Assembly (NCBI GenBank): GCA_963701295.1
Contig: OY969585.1
Location: 1,152,001-1,216,000, forward strand
Reading direction: 5' to 3'
DNA length: 64,000 nucleotides
DNA from: Ignavibacteriota bacterium
Lineage (GTDB): Bacteria; Bacteroidota; Ignavibacteria; UBA10030
This document shows, in pieces, positions 4,308 through 59,448 of this stretch. Below the pieces are notes generated by a model. It ran no database searches and was not told the origin of the DNA. It saw only the letters and a program-made list of their open reading frames with translations. The first letter of the stretch is position 1, and each line of letters opens with the position of its first letter. The position numbers and the translations under genes are program-made.

Positions 4308-4489
4308 CCCTAACCAGGCGCTCCCGCCCAACAAGACGGCGGGCAAGCAAGCTAACGGTTGCCAGTTGGGTACGTAAATCATGGCGAGCATAGGTTTAGT
4401 GCAAAATTGAAAGTTATCAGCGTGAACTTGTTTCGTTTAGTACAATTTGAAAGTTTTCATTGCCGCAGCTTAGCCGCCATCCGTTAGGT
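4308..4489 (+). repeat. attC site 1 (25-nt hairpin insert in L'')
   Basis: CCCTAAC-CAGGCGCT[insert]CAAGCT ... GCAGCTTAGCCGCCATCC-GTTAGGT. Confidence 0.85.
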
Positions 4490-4540
4490 GGCATTGTGAC
4501 GGGCAGCGGTGCTGGATTCAATCAAAGGATACAATACATA

Positions 4541-5212
4541 ATGAATTCTAAACTACTAAGTATTACTCGTATCGTTAGTTTCATCATGACAATATATATT
4601 TGGCGGGTGGTGCAATTCGCAGAGTTTTCTCAACTCGCAGAGTACACTCTGACCATCGGACCAATTTTGTTTGTTTTTCCAGTTGTCTGGATCGGACGGA
4701 AGGCGGTCAACCTCAAACCGACTTTTGAGCGTGTTGCCTGGATTACGAGCTTTGTTCATATCGTCTTAATGGTTTTCTTTGGTGTATCGATCATCGAAGC
4801 CATCAGACTGTTTCAAATCTCGCGTGGCATCACAATACCATTACCTGTCGAAATTGGAACGGTACTCCTTTATCTTACCGGTGCGTGTTTGTCATTGACC
4901 GTGGTAAATCTCGCATTAAGCGGACTCGGAGCACCATTTGCTATTGCATTGAGCAAGCGTCTTGCAAATCGCTGGATGTATCGTTGGACGAGAAATCCGA
5001 TGGTTTTATGCTGTCTCGCCATGCTTCTATCGGCTGGCATTTATTTACAGTCTCTTTATTTTGTTTTGTGGGTTGTTTTACTTGTAACACCGGCGTGGAT
5101 TTACTTTTTGAAAGTGTATGAAGAGCGCGAGCTTGAAATCCGTTTCGGTGCATCATACTTGGATTACAAAACTAATACTTCTTTTCTCTGGCCAAGAATA
5201 CCGAGGAATTGA
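4541..5212 (+). CDS. Cassette 2: isoprenylcysteine carboxyl methyltransferase (ICMT/PEMT) family membrane protein
   Basis: Multiple TM helices; GLGAP, Y..TRNPM, EERELEIRFG..Y..Y motifs; ATG at 4541 chosen because the longer TTG start lies inside attC1. Confidence 0.8.
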   Translation: MNSKLLSITRIVSFIMTIYIWRVVQFAEFSQLAEYTLTIGPILFVFPVVWIGRKAVNLKPTFERVAWITSFVHIVLMVFFGVSIIEAIRLFQISRGITIPLPVEIGTVLLYLTGACLSLTVVNLALSGLGAPFAIALSKRLANRWMYRWTRNPMVLCCLAMLLSAGIYLQSLYFVLWVVLLVTPAWIYFLKVYEERELEIRFGASYLDYKTNTSFLWPRIPRN

Positions 5213-5234
5213 AATATAATTGTATAACAATGCC

Positions 5235-5454
5235 GCTTAACCAGGCGCTCCCGCCCAACAAGACGGCGGGCAAGCAAGCTGACGGAATGAGCTCATTGCA
5301 ATTAGCATGGCTGGTGGTGGGTTTAAGTTATTATAATTAACTTTTTTGTACCTCGTTGGTTGAGACAAATAAATATGGTTATCAGCATGAACTCGTTTCG
5401 TTTTGTGGTTAATTAAACTTGGTCACGCGGCAGCTTAGCCGCCATCCGTTAGGC
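5235..5454 (+). repeat. attC site 2 (25-nt hairpin insert in L'')
   Basis: GCTTAAC-CAGGCGCT[insert]CAAGCTGAC ... GCAGCTTAGCCGCCATCC-GTTAGGC. Confidence 0.85.
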
Positions 5455-5501
5455 GGCTTCCATAAACTATGGCAGTCAATTAATGAAAAGGGGATCAGAT
5501 A

Positions 5502-7562
5502 ATGAAATTCTTGCTAAGATATTTTGAGAAATTCATATTGTATTTGCAAACCGCCTTTGGGGTGAAACATATTCACACAGTAATCATCCTTTTTCTATTG
5601 TTGATTAACCTAGTGCTGATAGTGGTGGTTTTCCTTCTTTCGAATTCACTCGCCTCTATCTTAACGAATATGGCACTAAATTTCCTACAATTCTTCTTTG
5701 TTGTAGTCCTTTTAGGTGTCATCTTGGGGATCACATCTAATTACTTGTACGACAAAGCTATAGCCGCACTAAATAATCCTATCGGAAGAGCTATAAGCGA
5801 AAGCAGATTGATTAATTACTTCCTACCTGACAAAGAAAGTGAGAAGGAGAGAAGAACAAATTTAACAGTTGAGCGTTTGCCCAGCATGAAAGGCGAAGTT
5901 TGCATATTCGCCATTGCAGCAACAAGCTACCTTCCCAAGAAAGATGATGCAACACGTTTCTCCCAATTATTCATCAGCAAGTTAATTAACAAAGAAATTA
6001 ATTTGCGACTATTATTACTCAATCCCTACAGCCAAGCTTCGAAGTTTAGATATGCGCGAGAAGAAGGTATTGATGTGGATGTTATTTGTGAAAGAGAGAG
6101 GAACGAAATGAGATTTGAGAGATCGGCGCTCTATGGTGACATTGTGAACACTATGGATAAAGTCAAAGAGCTAAGAACTAAAGGGGCCAACATAGAATGC
6201 AGACTTACCAACTTCGAGCCTGCAATATCAATGATGTACACCAGTGACTTTGTTTATATTGATATACTTTCCTTGGGAAGGTTAGATGAAACGACTAAGT
6301 TCACAAAGCAACGAACTACTTTGCCAATCACCGAATTCTCCTCAGATTCTGCGTATTATCAAGTCGCCAAAAGCCATTTTGAATACCATTGGAAATATGG
6401 AATCACACCAGATGAATTTGGTTACTATAAACCCGCTTTACAAGAAAGCTTCTTTGGTTTCTCCTATACGGGCTATAGGTTGATCAAACAGCACGATTCT
6501 TGGATTTCTATTGATCCAGTAGTTGGATGCAACGCGGGTTGTAAATACTGTGTTCTTCAAACAACATTTCGGAATGATATTAAACCGAAAGTCTACGCAA
6601 GTCCGGAGACCATTGGTGATCACCTTCGAGAAAGCAAATTCTATCATGAAGACGAAGTCCTTTGCCTATTCAATTACACTGATGCTCTACTAACCGAAAA
6701 CAAAGAGCGTTTGATAAGTTGTCTTGAGACCCTTAAGGAAAAGCAATTTCGAAATTGGGTATGCATTCCCACAAAACACCCATTTGATGTGAAATTCGCT
6801 CACAAAATAATAGACTCGTATCATCATAACAAGTTGATCTTTCTCATTTCCCTTTCGGGCATGCCAGAAGGATATGAGCCGAGTATTAAATCAGCAGAGA
6901 TTGTTGCCACTATGAAAATGTTGAAAGAACTTAAGATACCACTCATTCACTATTGGAGGCCTGTTACCAAATTAAATTCCAGTGATCAGCATATTGAAAG
7001 TATTTTGGACAAAGTCGATGAGTACGCAAATTGTTCTGTGATTGTTGGCTTAAAGGCTAGCGATGCTCTCAATGACTACTATGTAAATGAGGGGCTTATA
7101 AGTAAGAGTGAATTAAAGGTTCATGGAGATTATTTACCAGAAGGATTCATGAAGAAGGTCAAAAATATTCTGAATCAGAAAGGCAAGGTATATCCTATCT
7201 ATCTTCACGCATCCTGTGCCGTAAGCAAGATAACAAGTCAGCCTGACTATAATGGAACTATGCTCAGAAACGATGTGTGTTCATTGTCTGCTACAGGAGC
7301 CTCATTATGTATTTCAGACCAAGAATCGATATGCCAGAACTTCTTAAAACGCACACAGCAAGAATTTGACAAGACCAAATTCTATGAGATTATTAGAGAG
7401 ATTCTTCCCAGAATGGATATGAAGATTGATGGCAATACGATCGAACTATTGGATCCTGTTTATCAAGAAGATCTTATTTATCTCGTACATCGACTCAGGC
7501 AACCAGTAGTGGCGAAACAGATATTGTACACCAATCAGTATGTTGGTTCAATACTTGCCTAG
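5502..7562 (+). CDS. Cassette 3: 2TM + DUF5919-like domain + radical SAM fusion protein
   Basis: Two N-terminal hydrophobic helices; LRLLLLNPYS..REEG middle domain; SIDPVVGCNAGCKYC (CxxxCxxC) plus extra C-terminal cysteines. Confidence 0.8.
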   Translation: MKFLLRYFEKFILYLQTAFGVKHIHTVIILFLLLINLVLIVVVFLLSNSLASILTNMALNFLQFFFVVVLLGVILGITSNYLYDKAIAALNNPIGRAISESRLINYFLPDKESEKERRTNLTVERLPSMKGEVCIFAIAATSYLPKKDDATRFSQLFISKLINKEINLRLLLLNPYSQASKFRYAREEGIDVDVICERERNEMRFERSALYGDIVNTMDKVKELRTKGANIECRLTNFEPAISMMYTSDFVYIDILSLGRLDETTKFTKQRTTLPITEFSSDSAYYQVAKSHFEYHWKYGITPDEFGYYKPALQESFFGFSYTGYRLIKQHDSWISIDPVVGCNAGCKYCVLQTTFRNDIKPKVYASPETIGDHLRESKFYHEDEVLCLFNYTDALLTENKERLISCLETLKEKQFRNWVCIPTKHPFDVKFAHKIIDSYHHNKLIFLISLSGMPEGYEPSIKSAEIVATMKMLKELKIPLIHYWRPVTKLNSSDQHIESILDKVDEYANCSVIVGLKASDALNDYYVNEGLISKSELKVHGDYLPEGFMKKVKNILNQKGKVYPIYLHASCAVSKITSQPDYNGTMLRNDVCSLSATGASLCISDQESICQNFLKRTQQEFDKTKFYEIIREILPRMDMKIDGNTIELLDPVYQEDLIYLVHRLRQPVVAKQILYTNQYVGSILA

Positions 7563-7604
7563 CGAATTGATGGAAAGACAAACTATGTGAATAAGCAAGT
7601 AACC

Positions 7605-7764
7605 ACCTAACAAATCGTTCAAGCTGACCGTATGAGCGTTAGTACCGATAAGCATGGCTTGCATAGGTTTTGGTTCTTAATAATAAACTTATCAGCATGA
7701 ACTTGTTTCGTTTTGTATATTTTGAAAGTTATCAACGTGGCAACTTAGTTGCCATCCGTTAGGC
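7605..7764 (+). repeat. attC site 3
   Basis: ACCTAAC-AAATCGTTCAAGCTGAC ... GCAACTTAGTTGCCATCC-GTTAGGC. Confidence 0.85.
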
Positions 7765-7793
7765 GGGCAAAAAACAATTACAAATACAGGAGA

Positions 7794-8564
7794 ATGAAAA
7801 TGTATATGCAAAGAAAAAGAATGCTATTCCTTTATTTAATCTTGATGTCAGTCACGATTAACTTACAATCGCAAGATACATCATCAGAACGAAATTCTTT
7901 GAAAGCAGGTGCTTGGGCATTGCAGTTTGGGATTTCCAGTAACTTTACGCTCACATCATTTCAAGGAAGTAATATAGCGTTCAAATATCAATTATCCGAC
8001 AAGAGCGCTCTTCGTGGAGGAATAACAATTAACGGTAGCACTAATGATGGAACCACTTCAAATTCTGGATCAATCGATGATACCAGCTATGGTACTGCTC
8101 CGGGAAGCAGCTCAACGGAATCCGCAACTGCCTCTTTTGTTCTCCAATACTTATGGTATATGAATCCAAACGGCCCCGTACATTTCTACACTGGACTTGG
8201 TCCATTAGTTTCATACAGCTATTCCAAGTATTCCACAAATAATCCTTATTCATCTACTGTATATGATAGCGGAAGTTATCGCGGGTATTGAAATCGAAAT
8301 ATAAGTACTTCAAACTCTACCCAATGGGGATTTGGTGTATCGTGTGTTATTGGCGTCGAATGGTTTGCTTGCCAATGGTTATCCTTGCATGCAGATTACA
8401 ATGAAAGCATCCAATATCGATGGGGTTCGAATTCATCGAATCAAGAATGGTCTTCTTCGACCAGTCCAAATTTTATACCTTCTCAAACTAATAATTCTGG
8501 AACAAGCAAAGGATGGTCTTTAAGCAGTTCTAGCGTTGCATTCGGGCTAAATATATATTTGTAA
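7794..8564 (+). pseudogene. Cassette 4: outer-membrane beta-barrel protein interrupted by an in-frame TGA at 8289-8291
   Basis: Signal peptide after AGGAGA; the same frame continues 90 codons past the TGA (QWGFGVSCVIGVEWF...VAFGLNIYL*), ending 8 nt before attC4. Confidence 0.8.
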
Positions 8565-8572
8565 ATTTGCCC

Positions 8573-8789
8573 GCCTAACCAGGCGCTCAAGCTCTGCTTG
8601 TCCAGAAGAATGAATCACAGCCGGAGGCCTGAGAATGTCATTGCACGAAGTGCAATACAAATTTATTGGATGCAAAATTCATGGCGAGCAAAGGTTGAGT
8701 ACAAATTTGAAAGTTATCAGCATGAACTTGTTTCGTTTAGTGTATTTTGAAAATTATCAGCGCCGCAGCTTAGTTGCCAATCGTTAGGC
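8573..8789 (+). repeat. attC site 4 (about 73-nt insert)
   Basis: GCCTAAC-CAGGCGCTCAAGCT ... GCAGCTTAGTTGCCAATC-GTTAGGC. Confidence 0.85.
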
Positions 8790-8830
8790 AGCAACACAAA
8801 GTATCTTACTAATATAACTAGGAGAAAATA

Positions 8831-9142
8831 ATGACAAACAATCTTACCCCACAGGAAGAAAAGCAACTTCTTGAGATGCTAAAAAACCAGCCGCGAGATA
8901 TTCGTTCTATCAATATTACTGCAAATCTTTTTCTGGTATTTGGTGGTTGTTTTATAGTTGGCACGGCGTTTTATTTACTCAAACACTTTACGGATAATGT
9001 AGCATATTTTGTAGGTCTACCAAATTTCGTTGGAGGGATGATATTGATCGTTAGTTATATTTTGCTTTCGAGGAGAGTAATCCGAATGAAACAGTTAAAC
9101 TCAATATTATCAAAGCTGCATAAAATGATTATTGCTGCCTAA
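8831..9142 (+). CDS. Cassette 5: small 2-TM hypothetical protein
   Basis: AGGAG RBS; stop codon is the TAA of the attC R'' box. Confidence 0.8.
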   Translation: MTNNLTPQEEKQLLEMLKNQPRDIRSINITANLFLVFGGCFIVGTAFYLLKHFTDNVAYFVGLPNFVGGMILIVSYILLSRRVIRMKQLNSILSKLHKMIIAA

Positions 9143-9290
9143 CCAGGCGCTCAAGCTGACGGAATGAGCTGGGTGCGAAATTCATGGCGAGCATAGGTTA
9201 GTACAAGATTGAGAGAACCAGTATGAACTTGTTTCGTTGGTTGCATTACGAAACTTATAAACGCCGCAGCTTAGTGCCTGTCCGTTAGGG
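9137..9290 (+). repeat. attC site 5 (shortest, uninterrupted copy)
   Basis: GCCTAAC-CAGGCGCTCAAGCTGACGG ... CCGCAGCTTAGTGCCTGTCC-GTTAGGG; unpaired C in CTCAAG versus CTTAG matches the L-box extrahelical base. Confidence 0.9.
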
Positions 9291-9313
9291 CTATAATATT
9301 AAAGGAGTTCAAA

Positions 9314-9871
9314 ATGGATAAACATGAATTCTTAAAACAGCAATATATTTCATTACGAGAGGAAATTAAGGAAACTAAGGCACGTATTTTTAAAACCTTA
9401 GGTTTCGGTATTATTGCTGTTCCTGCTGCTAATTTTCTAGGAGAATCCTATCACATTGATGTTGTTATTCTATCGTTACCATTACTTGTCATTGTTCTTG
9501 CATTTCTATATTTATCAGAGAATAATGCTAAGATGAGATGTGGTAGATTTATAAGAATCCATATTGAAAGTTTATTCAAAGATATCCCTGGTTGGGAAAC
9601 CTGGCTTGAAAATCCTGAGGAGGAATATCAAACAAGAATTGTTGATATATATCTTGATGCTTGTTTTTATATCCTATTCTTCATTTACTATGTTGGTTCT
9701 GTTTTTCTTGAAACAAGATTTTCAATTCAAAATTTTCATCTTTTGATTACTGCTATGATACTTGGCTTTTACGTAGCAATTGGTATTTGGTTCTTAATAC
9801 ACTTAATTACACATATTCAAGTCTCTACGACAATTAAAATGGATAAGGACAAATTACAACATAAGCCCTAA
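9314..9871 (+). CDS. Cassette 6: 4-TM hypothetical membrane protein
   Basis: AAGGAG RBS; QYISLREEI helix, TM pair, RCGRFIR..IE, GWE, second TM pair; stop in R''. Confidence 0.8.
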   Translation: MDKHEFLKQQYISLREEIKETKARIFKTLGFGIIAVPAANFLGESYHIDVVILSLPLLVIVLAFLYLSENNAKMRCGRFIRIHIESLFKDIPGWETWLENPEEEYQTRIVDIYLDACFYILFFIYYVGSVFLETRFSIQNFHLLITAMILGFYVAIGIWFLIHLITHIQVSTTIKMDKDKLQHKP

Positions 9872-10082
9872 CCAAGTGCTCAAGCTCGGCTTGTCCAGAA
9901 GAATGCATCACAGCCGGAGGCCTGAGAATGTCATTGCACGAAGTGCAATACAAATTTATTGGATGCAAAATTCATGGCGAGCAAAGGTTGAGTACAAATT
10001 TGAAAGTTTTCAGCATAAACTCGTTTCGTTTTCAGCAACTTGAAATTTATCAGCGCCGCAGCTTAGCGCCGATCCGTTATAC
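9866..10082 (+). repeat. attC site 6 (same about 73-nt insert as attC4)
   Basis: CCCTAAC-CAAGTGCTCAAGCT ... GCAGCTTAGCGCCGATCC-GTTATAC. Confidence 0.85.
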
Positions 10083-10152
10083 CGCTTGCGTTTTAAGGTA
10101 AGTTGGCCGAATTTAGCAACACTATTAATAAAATGAAATAAGGAGATAAACC

Positions 10153-10527
10153 ATGAATATTTTCTTATGGGTTCTTCAAATTCTTCTTGCCTTGCATACC
10201 ATCATGGGTGCAGTTTGGAAGTTTTCCAATTCGGAACAAACCGTACCTTCCTTGAGTACAATTCCTCATGGATTTTGGCTGACGTTGAGCGTCATTGAGC
10301 TGCTTTGTAGTTTGGGTTTGATCCTCCCTGCACTAAATAAGCGACTAGGCGTCCTGGTGCCGGTCGCGGCGGTTTGTATTGCAGCTGAAATGCTGCTCTT
10401 TTCCGGATTGCATATTTACTCCGGTGACACGAATTACAACCAAATGATATATTGGCTCGTCGTGGCTGCCATATGTTCGTTTATTGCTTACGGTAGATTT
10501 GTGTTGAAACCTCTTAGACGTCCTTAA
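10153..10527 (+). CDS. Cassette 7: DoxX-family membrane protein
   Basis: MNIFLWVLQILLA...IELLCSLGLILP...AYGRF pattern; AGGAGA RBS. Confidence 0.85.
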   Translation: MNIFLWVLQILLALHTIMGAVWKFSNSEQTVPSLSTIPHGFWLTLSVIELLCSLGLILPALNKRLGVLVPVAAVCIAAEMLLFSGLHIYSGDTNYNQMIYWLVVAAICSFIAYGRFVLKPLRRP

Positions 10528-10573
10528 ATAAGAAGTCAATCAATATGAGTTATGCAAAAAAATGTCGCAAGCG

Positions 10574-10761
10574 GTATAACCAGGCGCTCAAGCTGACCGG
10601 ATGAGCGCCCGCCCAAAGATAAACATGGCGGGTAAATGGGCACGTTAAGCATGGCGCGTAGAGGTTCAGATGTTTAATAATAAACTTTTCAGCATGAACT
10701 TGTTTCGTATAGTACATATTGAAAGGTATCAGTGGCGCAGCTTATGCGCCATCTGTTAGGG
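10574..10761 (+). repeat. attC site 7 (internal CCCGCC/GGCGGG hairpin insert)
   Basis: GTATAAC-CAGGCGCTCAAGCTGAC ... GCAGCTTATGCGCCATCT-GTTAGGG. Confidence 0.85.
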
Positions 10762-10786
10762 CGCATTCAAAATAAAGGAGAATTAA

Positions 10787-11203
10787 ATAAAAAGTAGAAA
10801 AAAATATATTCCACTCATATTCATTATTCCAGCACTAATACGCTCAATTAATCATCCTCCTCAATTGACATCGGGTTCTATAGGATTATTTGTAGTTATT
10901 CTTCTTTTAGTTGGTTTGTTCGTTTATTTAGAAAAAAGTATGGAGAAAAGAATTCGTAGGTTCGATAGAATCAAAGATCATCGATTCCTCTATATATTAA
11001 GTTTTAGTTTACTTTGCGGCTTACCTCTATCATTGGTATTAACTTGGTCATGGGAGTCTCAAATAAAATTATTGTACGCCATTCTTTTTATTGTATTGCC
11101 GACAGTCGTAATTTTTGGATGGACTGGATTGATGGATTGGAAAGAATGTCAGAAAAAATATCTCGAATTGAAATATTCACAACACGCAAATAATGCGACC
11201 TAA
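10787..11203 (+). CDS. Cassette 8: hypothetical membrane protein (apparent ATA start codon)
   Basis: AAGGAG 6 nt upstream of an in-frame ATA at 10787; frame open to the TAA in R''; first canonical alternative start is TTG 10865. Confidence 0.65.
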   Translation: MKSRKKYIPLIFIIPALIRSINHPPQLTSGSIGLFVVILLLVGLFVYLEKSMEKRIRRFDRIKDHRFLYILSFSLLCGLPLSLVLTWSWESQIKLLYAILFIVLPTVVIFGWTGLMDWKECQKKYLELKYSQHANNAT

Positions 11204-11258
11204 CCAGGCGCTCCCCGAAAAAAGAATTCGGGGCAGGCAAGCTGTCCGAATGAGCATT
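11198..11258 (+). repeat. attC site 8, left half only (25-nt hairpin insert; truncated)
   Basis: ACCTAAC-CAGGCGCT[insert]CAAGCTGTCCGAATGAGC, then similarity is lost; no L'/R' found. Confidence 0.75.
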
Positions 11259-11414
11259 GACTCGCCTCTTTTTTCTTATTTATTATAAGAGTGAATTGAT
11301 GGAATGCGGGAGATGTAATAGTCTATCTCACCGATTGTCGTTCGTTGATCATGATTATTCTTCAGGAGAAGATCAAATGAAAGTGAAAAAAGAAAATGGT
11401 TCTCAGGTGAAACT

Positions 11415-59237: not shown

Positions 59238-59417
59238 CCCTAACAAGCCGCTCAAGAGGCGCCTGTGGTGCTCACTCGGCTTGTCCGGAAGAATGCATCA
59301 TGCTGAGGGTGATAATAAATTGGGAAGTATCAATTTTGTCGAGTCGGGATTACTTGTCCGCCGGTTGTTTGGCGGAGCGGCCCGCCACGAAACTGGCGGG
59401 TAATCTTATAGTTAGAG
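59238..59417 (+). repeat. Degenerate attC site with hairpin inserts
   Basis: CCCTAAC-AAGCCGCTCAAG; CTCGGCTTGTCCGGAAGAATGCATCA shared with attC4/6; candidate R' GTTAGAG. Confidence 0.65.
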
Positions 59418-59448
59418 TATGTTTTGAAATGCTGAAAGGATTTTGTTT

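Follow-up and report, generated by a model that had tools for sequence, protein, structure and literature searches.

What is the 25-nt hairpin that interrupts three attC sites of one integron cassette array at the same nucleotide, and what put it there? The array lies in a 64,000-nt stretch of an Ignavibacteriota genome (contig OY969585.1, positions 1,152,001 to 1,216,000; hereafter the window), and its inserts belong to a family of gene-less, polar hairpin elements that occurs in many phyla. We propose, and would give this a probability of roughly 0.55, that these hairpins are moved by a nickase of the GIY-YIG type that is linked to tRNA genes and resembles the Ssn proteins, and that they have then spread among attC paralogs by conversion.

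Alignment of filled with empty attC sites gives four insertion points: site A in the L'' box on the top strand, site D in the L' box on the bottom strand, and, beyond the L box and higher in the attC stem, sites B and C. Sites A and D mirror each other, and the foot-bearing strand reads ^YAAGC at both. A preliminary description of this DNA had placed the three 25-nt inserts at one L'' position, and all of its coordinates are exact: each insert sits at GCGCT^CAAGCT, and empty sites such as attC5 (9137-9290) read GCGCTCAAGCT. With numbering that starts at the inverse core, the insert lies between attC positions 15 and 16, directly 5' of position 16, which is the extrahelical base, a G on the bottom strand (according to passages of PMC5027507). 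The attC sites and inserts of the window are listed here in window coordinates, sites with left and right arms of different types being called arm-chimeric:

attC1, 4308-4489, + strand: 182 nt, arm-chimeric, left arm of type GGCGCT and right arm of type GCGGCT
attC1 site-A insert, 4323-4347, + strand: 25 nt, 6-bp GC stem, 9-nt loop, CAAG foot
attC2, 5235-5454, + strand: 220 nt, long terminal-structure type, arm-chimeric
attC2 site-A insert, 5250-5274, + strand: identical to the insert at 4323-4347
attC3, 7605-7764, + strand: site A empty, left arm degenerate
attC4, 8573-8789, + strand: site A empty; insert of another family directly 3' of L'', core 8596-8612
attC5, 9137-9290, + strand: 154 nt, empty reference site
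attC6, 9866-10081, + strand: site A empty; second insert family as in attC4, core 9889-9905
attC7, 10574-10761, + strand: site A empty, site C filled
attC7 site-C insert, 10608-10636, + strand: outside the L box, same stem family, TAAA foot
attC8, 11198-11265 (end approximate), + strand: left half-site only
attC8 site-A insert, 11213-11237, + strand: 25 nt, 7-bp-stem lineage, CAGG foot
distant attC, 59238-59418, + strand: solo, decayed, with several inserts
site-D insert of the distant attC, 59353-59376, - strand: bottom-strand insertion at the mirror L' position
further family hairpin of the distant attC, 59381-59403, + strand: decayed copy with a TAA- foot, located in the spacer and R' region

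The related hairpin reported in attC7 was confirmed at 10608-10632, its TAAA foot extending to 10636, and a broad hairpin-plus-foot scan found 12 further copies at the same attC position in the genome. Relatives of the attC8 insert occupy site A in genomes G058, G184 and G048 (with a TAAA foot in G048); a right arm of attC8 was looked for and none was found. What had been described in the distant attC as an inverted pair is indeed two hairpins, and the one at 59353-59376 is more than half of a pair, namely a bottom-strand insertion at L' that reads GGC^TAAT, having decayed from GGCGC^TAAGC; the same or a near-identical allele occurs in G184, G058 and G048. The core of the second insert family recurs at 59279-59295 in the distant attC, and this family, located 3' of L'', is common in G058, often alongside site-A inserts. 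An Rfam scan of the window returned one tRNA only and no family for the hairpin element.

The reported lack of a target duplication holds, save for an ambiguity of 1 nt that arises because the element starts with the same base that follows the foot. Covariation of the stems had been claimed between the attC1/attC2 and attC8 inserts; these are two variant lineages rather than a covarying pair of one alignment, and covariation is found within the 7-bp-stem relatives of the attC8 insert (nine related sequences), where 92% of the cells are paired, three of the seven pairs have changed on both sides, and the paired fraction was reached by 0 of 500 shuffles. Quasi-palindrome correction, by which a hairpin corrects itself, can produce stem covariation with no selection needed, and covariation as a proof of selection was dropped for this reason.

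The element as a whole consists of a GC stem, a variable loop and a 3' YARR foot, spans 21-37 nt and carries no gene, which supports the idea of a minimal, polar mobile element made of a hairpin and a tetranucleotide that inserts without classical duplication. A strict stem-plus-CARG pattern has 1698 matches in 151 genomes of the class against 301 in the control, and the feet CAAG, CAAA and TAAA interchange at orthologous sites. A pyrimidine comes after the foot in 68 of the 77 junctions left after dereplication (72 of 86 in a wider set; background 0.50), and the element tends to begin with that same base (Fisher p=0.004), as expected of a 1-nt microhomology. Reconstructed empty targets have a stronger tendency to fold than random windows do (median z -1.1 versus -0.3).

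The broad scan gave 59 matches in this genome and 6 in the reversed genome. Enrichment in attC was indeed found, as 25 of the 59 matches, and 25 of the 37 outside open reading frames (ORFs), lie in attC sites, which make up 7.5% of non-ORF DNA, with a pattern that was designed with the attC copies already in hand. The claimed specificity for attC, in turn, was not borne out, and targeting of attC alone is ruled out by the many non-attC hosts: the same family is found in pseudo-tRNAs, heptamer repeats, Ssn-type repeats (one such repeat in this genome) and other palindromes, across many phyla. A scan of GTDB genomes gave 121 loci in Bacteroidota, Patescibacteria, Omnitrophota, Desulfobacterota, Planctomycetota and others, of which by eye only five are at attC site A and many others lie within heptamer repeats. 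Phage contigs carry a symmetric form of the element (56 loci). Further hosts are palindromic repeats of several kinds.

At the attCs, insertions do concentrate at the extrahelical position of L'', a hotspot with several independent insert types, some of them tandem or nested. Site A is filled in 59 of 404 attC left ends from six genomes of the genus, a rate inflated by regions of G058, G063 and G184 that were partly chosen around known filled sites, and at least six insert types, three tandem doubles and seven nested forms occur there. In the present genome, 8 of 118 left ends are filled at A, one spurious row being left out of the count. The window does not hold three independent insertions, which the allele shared by attC1 and attC2 rules out: this allele has five copies in the genome (three of them in other attCs) and is also present in G058 and G063, and since it is common to both sites and to sister species, attC1 and attC2 are not independent events. 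Descent from a single ancestral event, which the preliminary description had named as a refutation, is half borne out, for attC1 and attC2, the insert of attC8 being of another lineage. Alleles at B, C and D are also common to several species, with site-D inserts recurring in sister species; one loop lineage is found at A, B and D, its closing pair changing from C-G to T-A at D, and a hybrid insert allele exists (L292). Shared alleles together with at least six site-A types therefore indicate that founders inserted repeatedly at one nucleotide and that the filled sites were then copied.

The copying seems to have involved whole arms. Arm chimeras account for 10 of 21 insert-bearing attCs and for 14 of 93 insert-free ones (p=0.002); attC1 and attC2 are both chimeric, and their sequences differ downstream of the insert. 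The crossover made by IntI is confined to the R' core, so that such arm mosaics could not be made by IntI. We infer that homologous conversion or templated genesis of attCs spreads filled left arms, to which the site-specific alleles shared across species and the arm-chimeric attCs point; another reading is that attCs already damaged tolerate inserts. Homologs of the gene of cassette 2 (50-70% identity; six loci in 5 of 60 genomes) are too distant to serve as empty alleles, and the one such locus with a complete attC of this attC family has site A empty. As to sequencing runs, no listed contig spans either insert, the best DNA run shares 0.18 of words, and no RNA run is listed.

A candidate enzyme is suggested by the company that the hairpins keep. 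This genome has four small GIY-YIG genes (PF01541), one of SsnA type and three with a tRNA gene on one side and a broken tRNA duplicate on the other. The element interrupts the pseudo-tRNA just upstream in two of these three tRNA-linked units (L002 and L004), and the only one of the 46 tRNA genes with an element within 250 nt is that beside L002. Among 111 relatives, 84 adjoin a tRNA, and 64 of the 84 have a tRNA duplicate, commonly interrupted or partly replaced by hairpins. Of 126 small GIY-YIG loci, 50 have stem plus YARR no more than 250 nt away (6 of 126 in the reversed control), and its density is 1.68/kb near the genes versus 0.068/kb in distal parts of the same loci, a 25-fold difference; the strict pattern was found near the genes at 15 of 111 loci. 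Stem plus YARR was found within 250 nt at none of 12 SsnA-type loci and at none of 13 loci of a subfamily bounded by inverted repeats (IR-bounded).

Hairpin type and protein clade are associated for the symmetric CAGG type, seven of whose eight loci fall in one ten-member GIY-YIG clade (SH-aLRT 94; 0 of 500 shuffles) that spans several phyla and tRNA types; the four best new homologs of this clade, from 300 further genomes, all carry that hairpin, one of them as a variant. Among 28 new loci, all ten tRNA-Cys units have a polar hairpin at one position with varying loops (judged by eye; six pass the strict pattern). The insert classes of the attCs all have counterparts in pseudo-tRNAs, namely the polar CAAG type, the TAAA foot and the CCCCGA stem of attC8. 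In the proteins themselves the catalytic Tyr/Tyr/Glu are invariant (Y5, Y16 and E62), the closest solved relatives are the UPF0213 proteins 1zg2 and 1ywl, and NCBIfam returned no useful family.

On this basis, the following mechanism can be drawn up. Insertion is precise, without duplication beyond the 1-nt ambiguity, in the attC L boxes on both strands and at two stem positions, and likewise in dead tRNA duplicates and other palindromic repeats. Hairpins accompany the GIY-YIG genes that lie between a tRNA and its broken duplicate, and the encoded protein would recognise stem and foot in single-stranded DNA (ssDNA). Once a folded target, for instance GCGCT^YAAGC, is nicked, repair would copy the donor hairpin, and gene conversion or templated attC genesis would carry filled left arms from site to site, in keeping with the pattern of alleles and chimeras. 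Finally, a hairpin at A or D is predicted to convert the bulge of the extrahelical base to a three-way junction and so, as a by-product, to lower IntI synapsis, and inserts at B and C should be better tolerated. A bolder formulation may be offered tentatively, as one we regard as possible and not as our expectation: small tRNA-linked GIY-YIG proteins might form a new transposase-like class that copies hairpins of 19-37 nt, which would rank with the smallest mobile elements, into folded ssDNA, homing to the L box on both strands might silence old cassettes, and the alleles might record an exchange of arms between attC paralogs that does not pass through IntI.

A number of observations weigh against the GIY-YIG proposal. 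The polar type that matches the insert is unclustered on the GIY-YIG tree (nine rows; 108 of 500 shuffles were as low), a tree that rests on few columns. Pseudo-tRNAs hold many hairpin types and could be neutral sinks created by the GIY-YIG unit. A GIY-YIG gene lies within 700 nt at only 2 of 70 copies from viral and metagenome contigs, the scan of metagenome neighbours having dropped 106 of 120 loci (those at or above 52% GC or shorter than 800 nt); the search for GIY-YIG took in only 49 of the 80 genome loci listed first, and no autonomous copy, with a GIY-YIG gene between the element's own arms, was seen among 123 loci. Copies of the element are not independent of one another, and the excess of chimeras is weaker in relatives (2 of 5 insert-bearing attCs versus 15 of 175; p=0.07). 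The insert changes the R/L pairing cost by a median of only +0.1 kcal/mol (38 sites filled in silico), and recombination does not in every case depend on single extrahelical bases (PMC5027507). Lastly, element counts across the 151 genomes correlate with GIY-YIG (rho 0.47) and with Y1_Tnp (rho 0.37), and within families only the link to Y1_Tnp survives permutation (p 0.007, versus 0.19 for GIY-YIG).

Counts at the level of genomes do not separate the two enzymes and speak for Y1 at least as much. The preliminary description had pointed to an enzyme of the HUH type (a RAYT or the TnpA of IS200/IS605), which would cut and paste the hairpin as is the case for repetitive extragenic palindromes (REPs). 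A hairpin with a tetranucleotide foot, polarity and a missing duplication all suit HUH chemistry, and Y1_Tnp is present in 117 of the 151 genomes. However, the element was found at none of 20 Y1_Tnp loci, either within 250 nt or anywhere in ~3 kb, in a small sample drawn mostly from element-rich genomes, so that the suggestion finds no local support and keeps some room at the level of genome counts. The single Y1_Tnp match of this genome is weak (E 8e-4) and has palindromes of its own with GTAG, a foot absent from the inserts, and 7 of 56 element-rich genomes are without a Y1 match (8 of 56 are without a match to the GIY-YIG query). Overall we judge a HUH enzyme to be improbable.

Somewhat better placed, while still unlikely, is a spread without any dedicated enzyme, through general repair, template switching in folded ssDNA and gene conversion. 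Hairpins would then pile up in structured DNA free of selection, and the proximity of GIY-YIG genes would merely reflect that of pseudo-tRNAs; many unrelated hairpin types do share site A and the pseudo-tRNAs, and filled attCs are often chimeric or broken. Yet the same stem and foot are conserved across many phyla and phages, insertion is polar and follows a pyrimidine rule, and membership of one GIY-YIG clade predicts a single hairpin type in new homologs as well. The explanation to which we give the least credit is that another small repeat-associated protein acts in trans, be it of the four-helix-bundle, DUF559 or GxxExxY kind, or an IR-bounded GIY-YIG protein. The element is often inside repeats that flank such genes, if these repeats are of the families we take them to be, and comparable GC caps close the ends of IR-bounded GIY-YIG elements, in some cases next to TAAA or CTTG; but none of these families occurs among 127 neighbouring ORFs (the longest ORF on each side was scanned, and 5 of 132 were dropped, four as duplicates and one as overlapping the element), and IR-bounded GIY-YIG genes were not seen in this genome and had no element within 250 nt at any of their 13 loci.

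If a tRNA-linked GIY-YIG nickase does place hairpins in attC sites, the question is what they do to the integron. Folding with DNA parameters has the insert extrude as a side hairpin beside the extrahelical G, and as pairing is nearly unchanged, any block of recombination would be steric. In five IntI-linked arrays only 1 of 64 attCs is filled at A, at rank 14 from the integrase; the IntI array of this genome contains B and C inserts. The scarcity of A-filled sites in IntI arrays fits a locking of cassettes and a slow colonisation with age alike and does not tell them apart. A-site inserts would probably hamper cassette excision, and a locking of cassettes in place is a plausible prediction.

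The array itself answers to the description of integron attC sites, with an inverse core RYYYAAC, L'' and L' boxes, the extrahelical base at position 16, a core GTTRRRY and a foldable bottom strand. The genome is complete (3.64 Mb) and has one full-length IntI far from the window (TIGR02249, 453 bits) and about 170 attC-like sites of one family, spread over many arrays; no IntI gene was found adjoining the window array, which is therefore a cluster of attC sites lacking an integrase (CALIN). Its cassette starts match their own inverse cores at 8-10 of 10 positions, so that the cassettes must have been delivered as units, by an integron integrase. The attCs of this genome are about 150-230 nt long and come in three covarying L-box/spacer arm types, the long type being ~38 nt longer; left and right arm types agree in 90 of 114 typed attCs, and about a fifth are arm chimeras. 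With its chimeric arms, the half-site attC8 and several insert families, the window array is decaying. The product of cassette 1 has a Por-secretion tail, and the same filled attC type is present in records of Ignavibacteriaceae, both of which point to a host that is likely a relative of Ignavibacteria.

Other features of these arrays are recorded for their own sake. Window positions 5502-7562 hold a cassette ORF of 686 aa without a match in a Pfam search, which by eye combines a membrane part at the N terminus with a PLD-like middle and a CxxxCxxC motif of radical-SAM-like type, and resembles a defence-type fusion. The gene before attC4 (7749-8523) has an in-frame TGA at 8289-8291 with an apparent continuation downstream, and probably encoded an outer-membrane protein before it was broken. 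In two species (G000 ~3542300; L317; L328), some attCs are preceded by a unit of 74 nt whose end is a copy of the attC left end.

Small GIY-YIG and Y1 genes also occur in other settings. The IR-bounded subfamily has GC-capped terminal inverted repeats, is inserted into other genes and clusters on the tree; by eye, its hosts include integrase-like (L045, without duplication), four-helix-bundle-like (L199, L269) and pilin-like (L242) genes and, at L246, probably a 23S rRNA. These units look like autonomous elements with the gene in the hairpin loop. Elsewhere, 3 to 13 near-identical small GIY-YIG units form tandem arrays with a spacing of 300-430 nt:

L045, L056, L186, L187, L199, L232, L240, L242, L246, L257, L264, L269, L273: IR-bounded GIY-YIG loci, in other genomes
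G043:C2:365051-368823; G223:C19:516164-517931; G271:C1:3709355-3710421: tandem GIY-YIG arrays

At L003 (G000:C1:2937456-2940674), an SsnA-type gene lies in nested-repeat arrays, one repeat of which holds a family hairpin with a CAGG foot as an insert. L007 (G000:C1:487039-490209) is a Y1 gene resembling RAYT whose reading frame contains a GTAG palindrome, with another downstream; the exact pattern has four copies in the genome. One genome of the same class, G299, combines 422 element-pattern matches with 16 Y1_Tnp matches.

The link between hairpin-filled attC sites and the hairpins of tRNA-linked GIY-YIG genes is drawn here. If it is true, it would name an enzyme class for the tiny hairpin inserts of Bacteroidota, Patescibacteria, Omnitrophota, Desulfobacterota and their phages, widen the idea of Ssn from cutting to mobility, and supply candidate sequence-specific ssDNA nickases with ready-made substrates. 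For integrons, the element would be an attC parasite of a third kind, landing on the extrahelical base that the integrase contacts and perhaps retiring cassettes. Its alleles would serve as natural markers by which lineages of attC copying and recombination can be traced; the genesis of cassettes is, to our knowledge, still unexplained. The inserts may also conceal attC sites from covariance-model searches. A literature search, to which subscription papers were mostly external and on which the Ssn supplements may bear, found no description of hairpins in attC or in pseudo-tRNAs beside GIY-YIG genes.

How does the element relate to known systems, as described in parts of the sources cited here? 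The attCs share with other integron and CALIN sites the R and L boxes and the extrahelical G at position 16 (PMC5027507), and differ in the mini-elements that colonise fixed positions and in their three covarying arm types. IS1111-attC elements and group IIC-attC introns also target attC (PMC3001079, citing Tetu and Holmes 2008), and are of kilobase size, with their own enzyme, and enter the antisense strand near the attC 5' end (PMC3001079), whereas our element is only 21-37 nt long, has no ORF, uses both L-box strands and has many non-attC targets. Transposable elements of the miniature inverted-repeat kind (MITEs) are defined by terminal inverted repeats with a target-site duplication and a cognate DDE transposase, and differ from it since its empty and filled alleles reveal no duplication beyond 1 nt and its foot is one-sided. 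Unlike in IS200/IS605, where subterminal hairpins bracket tnpA/tnpB, no Y1 gene lies beside the copies, and the target rule is a single pyrimidine instead of a tetra- or pentanucleotide.

There is also a likeness to REPs, to the bacterial interspersed mosaic elements (BIMEs) and to REPINs, the REP-derived hairpins, with their RAYT (Di Nocera et al. 2013, PMC3733652), which are also GC palindromes of 20-40 nt with an unpaired tetranucleotide tag, likewise non-autonomous and in some cases inserted within other palindromes. REP tags are GTAG or CGTC, in contrast to the YARR tag of our element on the 3' side; its feet are CAAG, CAGG, CAAA or TAAA, with no GTAG at the five inserts tested, and the main text of PMC3733652 contains neither 'CAGG' nor 'GIY'. 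No RAYT lies beside the element (0 of 20 Y1 loci), with a positive correlation at genome level.

Close in the kind of enzyme is Ssn with its NTS/SRM repeats (cd10448; Chenal et al. 2025, PMC11893778), likewise a small single-domain GIY-YIG protein beside short, oriented, dispersed hairpins. SsnA binds an oriented hairpin, nicks ssDNA beside it and requires the C that directly follows the palindrome, and mobility is raised there as a hypothesis (PMC11893778). In both systems a conserved base adjoining the stem is important. Here too, a small single-domain GIY-YIG with catalytic Tyr, Tyr and Glu stands beside an oriented hairpin. By contrast, the element-linked genes are tRNA-linked and form a separate branch: SsnA-type proteins such as L003, a label set by similarity to L003 and not by CDD, are on their own side of the tree (support 97), with L002 and L004 outside. 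The element inserts into other repeats, attC sites and pseudo-tRNAs, and the word 'tRNA' is absent from the Ssn main text (PMC11893778); the SRM consensus had no match at the five inserts tested, and 14 genome-wide versus 8 in the control. The element is thus a member of neither REP/RAYT, IS200/IS605, Ssn/SRM, MITEs nor the known attC-targeting elements. By analogy, it would nevertheless work like a REP or an SRM, as a gene-less, oriented hairpin tied to a small enzyme acting on ssDNA.

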